Source: Escherichia coli
Lineage (GTDB): Bacteria > Pseudomonadota > Gammaproteobacteria > Enterobacterales > Enterobacteriaceae
Assembly (NCBI RefSeq): GCF_044324785.1
Contig: NZ_CP172127.1
DNA length: 64,000 bases
Strand: one strand, 5' to 3'
A program made the position numbers. How positions within the stretch are numbered: position 1 is the stretch's first letter; every line of letters begins with the position of its first letter. Positions 58,701 to 61,700 of the stretch are shown here, one piece after another.

Positions 58701-61700
58701 ATCATAAGCTCGACCAGAAGCAGCTTTCAGCGAATTGAACTGGTTTTCCATCTTCCGGCGCTTGGTATCAATGGTTTTTGTGGAGTCGCCAGGCTGAGGG
58801 AAATACATTTGATAATATTTTGACATTTCAGCAGGTACGATAGCTGCCCCTGTTTCCTGACGGAGTATTGCCATTATTGCGTCATTAGCATTAACAACGT
58901 ATTGCTGCTCTGTTGGGCTGAGCGTTAAGTTAGCCAGCGTCCCATTACCCAAAGCATTATTAATGATCGCCACTCGCTGTGGGCTAAGCTGGTCTTTCAG
59001 TGTATCTATTGAATCAAGAGCATCCCTAACCCTGTATGCAAATCCAGCAGCTTTTTTAGCCCCTTCTGGCGACTTTTCCATGATCTTTTGGGCTGTTGGC
59101 AAAGCTATTGGACGAAACCCATCTCCAGATATTGGCTGGTTTAGTTTTCCCTGCTCTTCACTTCCGTCTGTGTAGTATTTTGTGACAGTGCCATCATCGT
59201 TTTCTCTAACACTCATTAATTTTTTGGCGTTTGTATTAATTCCAGCCGCTGCCGCAAATGCCGCCGCCCCCTCTGGATCCTCCTTTAACATTTGAGCGTA
59301 CTGATTGTAATTCTGCATTGCTGCTGTTGGTGCATATGCTGACGTTAACGCATTTGCTCGGCTAATATCCTGCCCTCTCGCCTGAAGTGCTTCGCCAGCC
59401 TGATTGCTGCGGATTGTTTCTGCCAACTTGCCACGCTCAATATCCCGACCTTCCATTTGATCTTTGATATCGAAATACTTCTCATGACCGAGAGAAAACA
59501 GTGCCATACTACCAGCAAGACGCTGGAATCCCTGTGGATCATTAACATGCATTTCGGCAACAGACTCAGGAGAAATTCCCAAGCGACGCATTTCATCTTC
59601 GTTATCTGCTATGAATTTTCCAAATGCCCCAGTTCCGAGCGAAGATGCGATTTGAGCACTAGTCGCAAGATGACCAATAGAATTTCTCTGGTCGTCATCA
59701 ATAAAGCCCATCCCTTTCTGAACGCTTTCAAATTCTTCTGGATACTCAGAAATAAGACTGCGCATTTTGTTTCTGTCTCCAGACTCAAAAGCCCCGGCAT
59801 ATGCTTTCTGAAACTCTGCTTTACGCTGTTGTTGACGTGCCTGCTGATTAATCTCAGCAACGCCTCTTAGCCCCTGTAGCGCCATTAAACCTACGTTTGG
59901 CGGCTGCTGATACTGCACAGGCTGAGGAACGGAAGAACGAGGAGCATTATCATTTTGCGGTGCCATGCTAGGCAGCCCGCCAAGTTGCCATGTCGCCATT
60001 AGAATCCAAGCCCCCCAACAAGACCAATAAGCCCACCACCAATAGCCCCGGCGACATTACCTATACCCGGAACAACGGAACCAAGTTGCGCACCCGCTAA
60101 AGCGCCTGATGCCGCCCCACCAATACCACGCGCAAGACTGGATGGCTGCTGCGCCTGACCTGCACGAATAGCGCCAAGCCCCTGCAAGAGTTGCCCGGTA
60201 TTATTGGCGTAGTTTTGCCCTGCTGTTGCCTGCCCTGATGCCGCATTCATCCCGACATTTAGCAGGTTTCCATAATTTTGCATTTGCCCACTAAGCCAAT
60301 TGTTATAAAGCATGGGCGCAATGGAAGATAACTGGTTACTGGTAGCTGTTGAGCCAAGCCCCCCGGTAGCTTCTGCTGAGACAAGGTTCTGATAACGGGC
60401 CTGATCTGCCTGTGTTTTATATAAACCAGAACCAAAGAAATCATTCGCGGCTTTATTCTGCCCTTCCAGAGTCATCAGTCCTTGTAGTTGTTGTAAAGCA
60501 GGCAATCCGACTTCTGCATACGGCTTGAGATTATTCATCACCGTATTCCACTGCTCGCGCTGCAAATCAATTGCCTGCTGCTGGGCCTTCGCCTGAGCTT
60601 TAGAGGCACCACCATCACCGCCTTTTTCGTATACGGCACGATTGAGATGTTTATGAGCTATATGGGTAATTAACATTCGCTGAATTCCTTATATTGTTGC
60701 CGAGTTAACTGATAAAGCGTTACGCCGACGGGTTTACCACATCTGATATAAGCATCATCAAGGTGACCAACACGGGTAGCGCCAAGCAAACGGATAATTG
60801 CCCGTCCGTATTTCGTGGTGTCAGGAACCATAGTGATGCTGTTAAGGAATGGTGAGTTTTCGAGAAGCCATTTGCAGAATAATCGATGTCCTTGCAGTGC
60901 ATATTCACCACGGAATCCGGGGGCGTACACCGCATGGCATTCAACAACGCTATGCCAGAAGTTACGCACTTCATGAACGCCAGCCAGCACCAATCCTTCG
61001 TAGATGCCGAGATATACCGCATCAGGCTTGATGTAGTACGTGTGCCCCGGCTCAACAATATTTTCGGTATTGCCTGGCTCGTTAAGAAAGGCCTGTAATC
61101 GCACAGGGTTATCAATAAATTTTAGTTCCATGCGATGCCATCCATTTTCACATACAGCCTGCCAGCGCCTTATCTATTAACCCTCGTGCAATTTCATGCA
61201 GAGTTGGCGCTACTCCAATTCCTGATTTTTTACGCTGCTCTTCCTGAATTTTCTTTATCGCTTCCATTTGCTTCTCACTTATCAATACCGGCTTTACTGA
61301 AATAGCCATAACGCCCCCTTAGAACTGTATAAAACAACAGTTATTATAGTTTCACAAATCGCAATATTCATCATAGCAATTGCAAAATATGAAACAAATA
61401 GCACAAAAAAATGCCACCGCTCAGTAGCTGGTGGCATCGTTCTGTGTGTCAGGTTTTGACAGGTTTTTTATGGACTCTAAAAACTATATTTATGGTGTCG
61501 CATTACTCTTCACGGCAGGCGCTTTTCAGTTCTGCCCTTGCTTCTGGCTCCATTGGTAATTTGATTCGCGATCAGCTATGCGGATGGTTTGCTGAACAGG
61601 CATAACAACTTCTCAGAGGCTGTTTTTTGAACTACGAAAATTTCGTAGTGCTCACTTTCAAAAACGTCACGCCCTTGTACACAGGATTTTACGAAAGTCT

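Follow-up and report, generated by a model that had tools for sequence, protein, structure and literature searches.

A terminator and a candidate promoter-operator region beside a small predicted ribbon-helix-helix gene at the junction of replication and DNA-ejection genes in an EcCIMP1-type Escherichia coli phage satellite

Within the 64,000 nt of Escherichia coli DNA analysed here (the window), sequence comparison places the interval upstream of a small ORF at the point where the replication genes of an EcCIMP1-type E. coli phage satellite (PICI) give way to its DNA-ejection-gene operon. Positions 61140-61900 are 97.4% identical to EcCIMP1 of strain MP1, and the 53-aa protein encoded there is identical in the two. 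Both elements have the same gene order (primase, small ORF, DUF2824 gene, gp7-like gene, ejection protein, and gp16-like gene) and the same chromosomal site, the yagU-to-tRNA-Thr/proA interval, whereas the cargo past gp16 is not alike, with Abi and SieA-like genes in the present window. Strain LS45 matches with 99.9% identity over 61100-61950 and carries the element beside yagU with the same layout; this element and a P22-like prophage both lie within the yagU-to-tRNA-Thr/proA interval. The window holds the element only up to the primase, and the PICI layout was read from the annotation of the near-identical LS45 copy and from MP1: an int-alpA-primase-iteron origin arrangement, no capsid or lysis genes, a length of ~15-20 kb, and a specific att site. 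Iterons are found on both sides of the AT-rich centre of the origin. EcCIMP1-like satellites, or at least the present region, occur in 523-591 of 5,426 complete E. coli genomes (~1 in 10).

EcCIMP1 is a PICI that was shown experimentally to be mobilised by the P22-like helper phage vB_EcoP_Kapi1 (hereafter Kapi1), and helper-dependent excision and transfer were demonstrated for EcCIMP1 itself, not for the present copy (Pick, Stadel and Raivio 2025, ISME J, PMC11773190). It adds to superinfection immunity in uninduced lysogens, and no known defence system was found in it by Pick et al. (PMC11773190). A text search of the paper (PMC11773190) found no mention of the terminator, the origin, LexA, or the fold of the small ORF product. 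The intergenic region is not described there, and the control arrangement reported below, which is ordinary in kind, has not been described for this element. Table 1 lists the features of the interval.

Table 1. Features between the primase side and the ejection-gene operon, with positions in the window.
Feature	Position	Strand	Remarks
Small gene, 53 aa + stop	61148-61309	minus	predicted RHH fold; first gene of the late/cargo operon
Shine-Dalgarno sequence GGGGG	61314-61318	minus	4 nt before the small-gene ATG; direct sequence reading
LexA-type SOS box AACTGTATAAAACAACAGTT (CTGT-N8-ACAG)	61323-61342		directly downstream of the -10, over the expected start site
-10 hexamer, perfect TATAAT	61343-61348	minus	TATAAT in 13/17 loci, TAAAAT in 2/17
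O2 operator-like palindrome	61350-61364		minus strand TTGCG-ATTTG-TGAAA; in the promoter spacer, ends 1 nt from the -10
O1 operator-like palindrome	61380-61394		minus strand TTTCA-TATTT-TGCAA; 30 bp upstream of O2, centre to centre
Intrinsic terminator	61405-61437	minus	hairpin 61411-61437, then U7 (61405-61411); would end leftward primase/replication transcription
Conserved 13-nt motif GAGTCCATAAAAA	61465-61477	minus	upstream edge of the block common to all E. coli variants
Frameshifted relic of a 242-aa gene of the P22-like phage immI region	61560-61661	minus	codons ~49-88; contains palindrome 1
Palindrome 1 CTACGAAAATTTCGTAG	61632-61648		core TACGA-N5-TCGTA at 61633-61647
Palindrome 2 TTTTACGAAAGTCTCGTAAAA	61688-61708		core TACGA-N5-TCGTA at 61690-61704

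A 54-codon ORF ahead of a four-gene operon had been proposed in a first-pass annotation of this DNA, and the small gene does head the ejection-gene operon: it lies 16 nt upstream of the DUF2824/gp14 gene, and the four genes behind it match the P22 gp14, gp7, gp20, and gp16 families. The gene is real, conserved, and under purifying selection, and a purine-rich block occupies the Shine-Dalgarno position in all 17 relatives. In every relative it heads variable cargo, which can be ejection genes, a TerS-containing operon, or a gene annotated as peptidase M41 family.

The AF2 model of the 53-aa protein (pLDDT 82) comprises an extended segment (residues 1-11) and two helices (residues 12-29 and 37-52), a beta-alpha-alpha topology, and it is structurally similar to solved ribbon-helix-helix (RHH) domains. 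A linker-fused dimer was modelled with a pLDDT of only 56; with strands at 6-9 and 80-83, this model looks like single-chain Arc and like F-plasmid relaxosome chains. Sequence searches returned no Pfam, PHROG, or PDB match and no curated RHH profile for the protein. Sequence-level kinship to Arc or PutA was considered and dropped, as hhalign shows no profile similarity. The models predict an RHH (Arc/MetJ/CopG) DNA-binding fold.

Transcription arriving from the primase side would meet an intrinsic terminator ~460 nt beyond the stop codon of the co-oriented primase gene and also past the iteron origin. Its hairpin has a 9+3 bp stem with an MFE of -26.2 kcal/mol (z = -7.07; 0 of 200 shuffles fold as well), and the site is flagged by the consensus scan too. 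Two statements of the first-pass annotation are supported, namely that a clean intrinsic terminator for leftward transcription is present, the hairpin being a good one for transcription from the primase side, and that the interval is regulatory. Ten of the 17 relatives have a hairpin with a T-run 12-46 nt upstream of O1, and the stem sequence in them is unrelated. The 13-nt motif beyond the terminator recurs in the early region of the satellite, directly before the -35 of the isrK/C4 RNA promoter, and in a Citrobacter relative it occurs twice upstream of the terminator. We considered it as a P1 C1-operator or a DnaA box and rejected both, the resemblance being poor by eye.

The promoter region of the small gene (61323-61394) starts ten bases past the U-run of the terminator and aligns in one gapless register in 17 loci from ~10 Enterobacterales genera. 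The alignment was anchored at CTGT, and O1, a 15-nt gap, O2, TATAAT, and CTGTAT remain in one register throughout. The -35 is weak (ATGAAT, 3/6) and fails the 4-of-6 rule of the consensus scan, which is why the scan missed this promoter. O1 and O2 form a pair of 15-bp palindromes (TTTCA-N5-TGMAA), 30 bp apart and with half-site centres 10 bp apart. In each whole satellite, only O1 matches the operator pattern exactly. O2 is conserved without gaps in the 17 loci from ~10 genera with the consensus ATT(T/G)CA-N5-TG(A/C)AA, and in the E. coli variants its half-sites are invariant and the substitutions fall in its spacer. Across 61310-61404, the E. coli variants differ at 12 sites, only one of which is within the 34 core positions. 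The predicted DNA-binding fold is encoded directly downstream of the O1/O2 promoter in every locus.

The LexA-type box adjoins the -10 hexamer directly, with no base between them, and the position of the start site that it would cover is itself inferred. It has the CTGT-N8-ACAG core with an A/T-rich centre and a heterology index (HI) of ~4.4, compared with 0.85-9.85 for 27 known E. coli boxes, all HI values being approximate because the matrix was rebuilt from known sites. The box is the sole site with an HI <8 in each whole satellite, and 14 E. coli sequences show no variation at 61323-61341. Among the 17 cross-genus loci, eight have CTG-N10-CAG spacing at the box position (HI 4.0-7.8 for those scored), seven have CTG-N9-CAG (HI ~14 in two scored, which is not LexA-like), and two have neither. 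In Serratia, Citrobacter, Lonsdalea, and Pantoea relatives the position is occupied by boxes of differing sequence. The N9 spacing in seven relatives indicates that LexA control is not family-wide, and part of the conservation of the box position may reflect the initial transcribed sequence. The first-pass annotation had overlooked these features nearest the ORF: the perfect -10, the two conserved operator-like palindromes, and the LexA-type box, all within 61323-61394.

O1, O2, and the LexA-type box beside the small-gene promoter are our candidate control sites, in place of the TACGA palindromes discussed below. One alternative is that nothing is regulated here, so that the promoter would be constitutive, the LexA-like box and O1/O2 merely promoter or 5'-UTR sequence, and the small protein non-regulatory. 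The box spacing that is wrong for LexA in seven of 17 relatives would fit such a view, CTGT-N8-ACAG alone is not statistically rare (two found in the window, 0.74 expected), and the immunity conferred by EcCIMP1 in uninduced lysogens implies some basal satellite-gene expression (PMC11773190). However, promoter sequence as such would hardly account for two dyad-symmetric 15-mers at fixed spacing in ~10 genera, a predicted DNA-binding fold follows them in every case, and in three clades the box, though differing in sequence, has scores typical of genuine SOS boxes. We consider an unregulated promoter very unlikely.

The two palindromes that had attracted attention first, ctacgaaaatttcgtag and ttttacgaaagtctcgtaaaa, are both real, and palindrome 2 lies outside the range of ~61623-61665 in which the pair had been placed. 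They are 57 bp apart and are the only two TACGA-N5-TCGTA sites in the 64-kb window, where 0.04 are expected; none of 100 shuffles contained two or more such sites, so that their pairing is more than chance. The first-pass annotation took them for candidate operators that control transcription from the primase side. In the model as considered here, the RHH protein, PerC, AlpA, or a helper regulator would bind them and gate transcription from the primase side or control a promoter in 61440-61760. Apart from their non-random pairing, the palindromes share the 5-N5-5 geometry of O1 and O2, conservation against a phage gene is 97% in a 38-nt core round palindrome 1 and ~70% in the flanks, and 456 of the 525 E. 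coli records that match the region (~87%) cover the palindromes. Their half-sites, however, are TACGA and not the TTTCA of O1/O2, and they lie 250-350 bp upstream of the operon promoter on the far side of the terminator, which thus separates them from the operon. The consensus scan of 60900-62100 revealed no sigma-70-like promoter near them, and the closest promoter is ~290 bp off, past the terminator. Neither the rest of the satellite, nor Kapi1, nor the P22-like prophage next to it, nor the relatives in other genera contain a further TACGA-N5-TCGTA site, and the palindromes are confined to one E. coli sublineage. In the E. coli variants L004, L005, and L006 the whole palindrome segment is replaced, and five of 14 E. 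coli sequences have a G>A change in an arm with no compensating change (G61636A in palindrome 1 in one sequence, G61693A in palindrome 2 in four). Both palindromes are dispensable in natural variants.

The history of palindrome 1 also argues against the operator model, as it is inherited coding sequence. The relic that contains it matches the phage gene by blastn with 76% identity over 112 nt (E = 3e-19), and tblastn recovers two segments in different frames. Klebsiella phage phiKp_30 and a Salmonella plasmid record that bears phage-gene annotations both match the 38-nt core with 97% identity; an intact homologue of the relic gene is located beside arc and ant genes in an E. coli prophage. On the minus strand palindrome 1 reads CAC TAC GAA ATT TTC GTA GTT (HYEIFVV), exactly as in the phage gene, and palindrome 2, 57 nt away, is in the same reading frame (YETFV). 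A longer duplication of palindrome 1 was rejected as the source of palindrome 2, since the similarity ends at 15 nt and the flanks are unrelated. Judging from these matches, palindrome 1 was most likely brought in with a decayed fragment of phage coding sequence, and the palindromes are largely a by-product of mutually reverse-complement codons (TAC/GTA and GAA/TTC) in that fragment. With no promoter nearby, no counterpart in other genera, uncompensated arm changes, and a phage-gene origin, operator function of the palindromes is unlikely; they are most likely not part of late-operon control, and we give the model built on them little credence. Some role at the DNA level may exist, given that the 38-nt core is 97% identical as opposed to 76% for the relic overall and that so close a pair is very improbable.

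In another alternative, the palindromes would act as nucleic-acid hairpins and not as protein operators, be it as single-strand initiation or priming signals near the origin, as stem-loops in the 3'-UTR that stabilise the primase mRNA, or as recombination-prone cruciforms that define the module boundary. Each palindrome forms a 7-8 bp hairpin in the predicted structure, palindrome 2 is located 52 bp from the first iteron, and two independent variant junctions fall inside it (61700) or 3 bp beyond it (61711). Yet the 318-nt stretch as a whole (61438-61755, minus strand) is no more structured than shuffles (z = -1.14), which leaves no structured RNA beyond the two local hairpins, and the substitutions break pairs without compensation. 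Moreover, L004 has the same primase and iterons and lacks palindrome 1 and half of palindrome 2, and a variant with a DUF5906 primase keeps the palindromes next to a different origin, so that the palindromes are tied to neither replicon type. We regard a hairpin function as quite improbable. Equally improbable is that the conserved non-coding block is a satellite pac site for the helper small terminase, with the RHH protein as a packaging-specificity factor like Rpp of cos-type PICIs: the interval has no P22 pac-like site and no similarity to the terS regions of Kapi1 or the adjacent P22-like prophage, so that pac-site mimicry was rejected as well, the window lacks a P22-type pac 22-mer even with 5 mismatches allowed, the satellite has its only terS-derived fragment elsewhere (ash/C4 region), and O1/O2 locked to a perfect -10 in 17 loci are a promoter-operator signature.

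We also looked for other functional elements in the region. An Rfam scan of 54000-64000 (E <= 1) gave two miRNA matches over the iterons, both attributed to chance, and nothing else. We rejected a toxin-like peptide of 29 aa, the hydrophobic product of a plus-strand ORF (61471-61560), as the ORF start lies within a DNA motif that recurs in non-coding or other-frame contexts and as, in the variants, this region forms the 3' ends of minus-strand genes that differ from one another and use two frames. Similarly, an 83-aa minus-strand ORF (61576-61827) is not taken to be a gene: it crosses the iterons, and its sole homology is to a frameshifted fragment. By reading of the alignment, five of its six differences from variant L003 are non-synonymous.

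We think it probable, with some reserve, that the late operon has a control of its own, by an RHH autoregulator and LexA, that the terminator insulates the replication operon from it, and that the palindromes are not involved. The terminator would shield the late/cargo operon from the replication operon, which we assume to be AlpA-activated by analogy with other Gram-negative PICIs, and the late operon would be started from its own promoter, in which the -10 is perfect and the -35 weak. The RHH product would bind O1 and O2 and autoregulate its own operon, most likely by repression, like Arc at Pant in P22. In the present lineage, host LexA would bind the SOS box over the start site, and DNA damage, the same signal that induces the helper prophage, would derepress the late operon, as LexA does for SaPI operon I. 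We infer all of these steps at the small-gene promoter from sequence features. O1 and O2 could equally be sites for another satellite or helper protein, and, given the weak -35, they could serve activation and not repression.

The layout of the satellite resembles that of Gram-negative cos-type PICIs, e.g., EcCICFT073 (Fillol-Salom et al. 2018 and 2019, PMC6092414, PMC6739421), which have int, alpA, primase/rep, and an iteron origin with an AT-rich centre, followed by interference or packaging genes. In those elements cos sites and Rpp come after the origin, whereas the present element shows no similarity to cos or pac and its downstream genes encode ejection proteins. SaPI operon I is reported to be under LexA control (Ubeda et al. 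2007, Mol Microbiol 65:41, as cited in PMC6092414). As far as that account goes, it is likewise a late/morphogenesis operon of a satellite, located downstream of the replication module and origin, with an SOS box in its own promoter, and its derepression by DNA damage coincides with induction of the helper; the latter two properties are only predicted for the EcCIMP1-type satellite. Going by the same account, SaPI operon I belongs to a Gram-positive satellite with unrelated genes that serve capsid remodelling and encode TerS, and not ejection proteins as in the EcCIMP1-type, and its LexA control differs from that predicted here, which is not common to all relatives of the EcCIMP1-type satellite.

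The predicted autoregulation has a parallel in the phage lineage from which the ejection genes of the satellite come, where a 53-aa protein is again the product of the first gene. Arc, encoded in the Pant-arc-ant unit of P22 immI, is a 53-aa RHH protein and the first gene product of the operon that it represses, and it acts through a single 21-bp operator within its own promoter. Our search found no sequence similarity between the two proteins, and the satellite has two 15-bp palindromes 30 bp apart as opposed to one 21-bp operator. We know of no RHH first gene in SaPI operon I.

The timing of the post-origin genes in EcCIMP1-like satellites has not been described so far. The analysis removes the conspicuous palindromes as a false lead, and the predicted SOS-responsive, self-regulated promoter bears on two points that the EcCIMP1 paper leaves open, the role of the ejection-like genes and superinfection immunity. 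A bolder reading, which we regard as rather unlikely, is that the small RHH gene and the O1/O2/-10 promoter, with a LexA box in some clades, form a core "late switch", so far unrecognised, at the cargo hotspot of a very large family of Enterobacterales satellites. The cargo of the EcCIMP1-type would then be its own copies of the P22 ejection proteins gp14/7/20/16, which would be made on SOS induction and would either be loaded into helper virions or interfere with helper DNA on its entry. If true, this would account for the EcCIMP1-dependent superinfection immunity.

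The interval forms a regulatory junction, ordinary in kind, in a known satellite, the phage-inducible chromosomal island (PICI) EcCIMP1, which is mobilized by the P22-like phage Kapi1 (PMC11773190). Between 523 and 591 of 5,426 complete E. coli genomes match it, mostly at 95-99% identity, and the intergenic part carries no annotated feature in the matching genomes. The copy in strain LS45 is 99.9% identical over 61100-61950, and the element there encodes an integrase, an AlpA-like HTH protein, AntA/B, an ash-family ORF, a primase, a small ORF, ejection genes, Abi, and PerC. It adjoins yagU, and a P22-like prophage stands in tandem between the element and tRNA-Thr/proA. 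The EcCIMP1 copy of strain MP1 (97.4% identity over 61140-61900) encodes an identical 53-aa protein, and the same element is also on record as a 12-kb circle. No Rfam family matches the interval, the EcCIMP1 paper (PMC11773190) makes no mention of a terminator, an origin, LexA or the fold of the small ORF product, and we found the details of the junction described neither there nor in a literature search.

As the first-pass annotation proposed, an ORF precedes a four-gene operon: 16 nt separate it from the four closely spaced genes downstream, which match DUF2824, P22_gp7, Inj_translocase (gp20), and a gp16-type DNA-transfer protein; in P22 gene order, the DUF2824 gene takes the place of gp14. 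Homologues of the small ORF form at least 325 clusters, all from Enterobacterales and each named "hypothetical", and none fell in a Pfam or PHROG family. Purifying selection acts on the core (mean pN 0.19 vs pS 0.75 for 17 loci in about 10 genera); the first ~50 residues are constant, and the C-terminal tail varies with the next gene. In every case the small gene heads co-oriented, variable cargo: ejection genes (E. coli, Serratia, and Citrobacter), a gene annotated as peptidase M41 family (E. coli elements whose primase is of the P4 family), or an operon with a terminal TerS gene (one Klebsiella element). In this Klebsiella michiganensis locus (L013, 5001-9639), the small gene and its promoter head an operon of five unannotated genes with a Terminase_2 (TerS) gene at its end, and the promoter therefore drives different "late" modules across satellites. 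A 204-aa membrane-type ORF follows the gp16 homologue (55840-56454, plus strand) and weakly matches SieA-like superinfection exclusion proteins in PHROG (E = 4e-4); the satellite cargo thus keeps the order of P22 genes 14-7-20-16-sieA, with an Abi-family gene next in LS45.

The intrinsic terminator noted at first pass also proved real, with a hairpin of -26.2 kcal/mol (z = -7.07) that no shuffle equals. A hairpin with a T-run occurs 12-46 nt upstream of operator-like site O1 in 10 of 17 relatives, and the stems are unrelated in sequence (GGCCACC, CCTCGCC, GCCCGC, GCCCTGC, and others). The terminator-then-promoter arrangement is conserved, its positional function being kept even without sequence conservation. 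The block common to every E. coli variant extends from the small ORF to ~61470, for DUF927, DUF5906, or P4-family primases alike. A second terminator-like hairpin with a T-run, within and antisense to the small ORF (61201-61221, plus strand), is probably due to chance, as the region scanned holds four terminator-like sites where 1.2 would be expected.

A promoter with a perfect -10 and two dyad sites, O1 and O2, is conserved. Gapless alignment of 17 upstream regions, anchored on CTGT, showed one fixed architecture: O1, a 15-nt gap, O2, one base, TATAAT, one or two bases, CTGTAT..., a purine-rich ribosome-binding site, and ATG. The centres of O1 and O2 are 30 bp apart, with a distance of 10 bp between half-site centres within each. 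O2 occupies the promoter spacer; a consensus scan reports no promoter here because the -35 is weak (3/6). Twelve positions in 61310-61404 vary among 14 E. coli sequences, only one of them among the 34 core positions (operator half-sites, -10, and CTGT/ACAG core). Within each whole satellite, the operator pattern occurs at the small ORF promoter only.

Coordinates of features at the satellite junction and in compared database loci (L numbers)
Feature	Position	Strand	Remarks
Small ORF, 53 codons	61148-61309	-	ORF listing, 60600-62400 read
SOS-box form CTGT-N8-ACAG, AACTGTATAAAACAACAGTT	61323-61342		after -10
-10, perfect TATAAT	61343-61348		17-locus alignment
O2, TT(T/G)CA-N5-TG(A/C)AA	61350-61364		17-locus alignment
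O1, TTTCA-N5-TG(C/G)(A/C)A	61380-61394		17-locus alignment
Intrinsic terminator hairpin, then U7 on minus strand	61411-61437	-	
13-nt motif GAGTCCATAAAAA (extended form AGTTTTNNGAGTCCATAAAAA)	61465-61477; L001 10357-10369; L007 669, 4742, 10064; L015 4801, 4835	- in window	
GTTGGTTCA iterons, 3 direct + 3 inverted, around AT-rich centre	61756-61870		downstream of primase gene
Primase gene (TOPRIM-DUF927)	ends 61894	-	same strand as small ORF
terS-like fragment and pac-like sites	L002 26364-26433; L034 18974-19060; L007 10019-10040; L019 19178-19199		

The SOS-box form has a heterology index (HI) of ~4.4, against 0.85-9.85 for 27 known E. coli LexA boxes, by an approximate Berg-von Hippel matrix built from those boxes. 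It ranks second among LexA-like sites in the window and is the sole site with HI < 8 in each satellite. The best-scoring site in the window, AACTGTGTTTATATACAGTT (50978-50997; HI ~2.2 by the same approximate matrix), lies inside the ykgJ coding region, as placed by offset from the LS45 annotation. Relatives have different box sequences at the same position (HI 4.7 in a Serratia-type locus, 7.6 in Citrobacter, 4.0 in Lonsdalea, and 6.1-7.8 in Pantoea). Seven other loci, including Klebsiella, Raoultella, Cedecea, and Rahnella relatives, carry CTG-N9-CAG, one base shorter; both of the two scored have an HI of ~14, and LexA should therefore not bind them. The window has two bare CTGT-N8-ACAG cores against 0.74 expected; the pattern alone is not rare. 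Thus, LexA control is a good prediction for this lineage and not a family-wide property.

Modeling of the small protein as a linker-fused dimer gave a low-confidence structure (pLDDT 56) with short strands at residues 6-9 in both copies, resembling single-chain Arc. At the sequence level it resembles neither Arc nor PutA nor any solved structure, so the protein is predicted to be ribbon-helix-helix (RHH)-like by its modeled fold alone.

The first-pass annotation, essentially right in its observations and right in its reading of the ORF and terminator, also described two palindromes with the same half-site and proposed them as candidate operators. Both palindromes are real, with one coordinate error (the second sits at 61688-61708), but the operator reading is probably wrong. 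Set in register, both have the form TACGA-N5-TCGTA with a 57-bp offset, and the 64 kb contain no other such site (two observed, 0.04 expected). Palindrome 1 has a coding origin. The segment 61560-61661 shares 76% identity (E = 3e-19) with codons 49-88 of an intact 242-aa homologue that adjoins arc and ant in the immI region of a P22-like prophage of E. coli, and protein-level similarity runs on in a second frame, so the segment is a frameshifted fragment. Megablast matched 38 nt (61624-61661) at 97% in two records, Klebsiella phage phiKp_30 and a Salmonella plasmid entry that carries phage-gene annotation, and in both the palindrome is within a gene. In the phage gene it reads CAC TAC GAA ATT TTC GTA GTT (HYEIFVV), and the dyad symmetry arises because these codons are mutually reverse-complementary (TAC/GTA, GAA/TTC). 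Across 80 viral loci, YEIFV-class homologues all have exactly these codons, and the YTKSV class lacks the palindrome. Palindrome 2 reads YETFV in the frame of palindrome 1, 19 codons off, and nothing in its surroundings resembles palindrome 1 or the phage gene.

A view of the palindromes purely as relics leaves unexplained the very low chance of a second such site 57 bp from the first, and also why the 38-nt core is so much better conserved than the remaining fragment. There is a small probability that they act as hairpin or recombination elements: two independent variant junctions fall in or 3 bp beyond palindrome 2 (61700 and 61711), one in E. coli variant L004 (an inserted 152-aa gene) and one in L003 (a DUF5906 primase and a different origin). 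Palindrome 2 may mark a recombination-prone module boundary. Predicted RNA structure over 61438-61755 (minus strand) as a whole is unexceptional (z = -1.14). That the palindromes are operators is likewise improbable, since the pattern occurs nowhere else in the satellite and is missing from Kapi1, the adjacent prophage, and every other-genus relative, three E. coli variants (L004, L005, and L006) have other sequence or genes in its place, and G61636A (palindrome 1, 1/14 E. coli sequences) and G61693A (palindrome 2, 4/14) lack compensating changes in the other arm; in these 14 sequences, the palindromes vary as much as their flanks or more.

A packaging-site reading of the interval is unsupported, as it has neither similarity to helper terS nor a P22 pac-like site. 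Elsewhere, EcCIMP1-type satellites carry, in antisense orientation inside the ash region, a 70-87-nt fragment that is 91-93% identical to terS from the adjacent P22-like prophage and extends to the pac site; the satellite copy of the 22-bp P22 pac matches at 15/22 positions (manual alignment). This is a candidate satellite packaging site. A Serratia relative has a 19/22 pac-like site downstream of its cargo operon. The early region, past the right end of the window, also holds genes for the isrK and C4 antisense RNAs (65-81 bits in Rfam; L001 10127-10315, minus strand; L007 723-950) upstream of an icd-like gene, an arrangement resembling the P1-type c4-icd-ant immunity module. A PGAP "ash family protein" ORF overlies the two RNA genes. 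The 13-nt motif recurs in two to three copies per satellite, always on the coding strand and also in Serratia and Citrobacter relatives; one copy is immediately upstream of the isrK/C4 RNA promoter -35.

By computation, the junction combines a strong terminator, the conserved promoter with its two dyad sites, an SOS-box-like site, and a conserved gene of predicted RHH-like fold heading the ejection-gene operon. With the terminator in place, this late/cargo operon would be transcribed independently of the replication operon. The small protein, a predicted RHH-class member, would autoregulate its own promoter, most likely by repression, through binding of dimers of dimers to O1 and O2. In this lineage, LexA would add SOS control, the operon being a predicted regulon member, and the DNA damage that induces the helper would also switch on the satellite ejection-protein genes. 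One of the two closest precedents is Arc autoregulation at P22 Pant. The other is LexA control of SaPI operon I, as cited in PMC6092414. The details of this satellite junction, which the EcCIMP1 paper does not describe, are directly testable.
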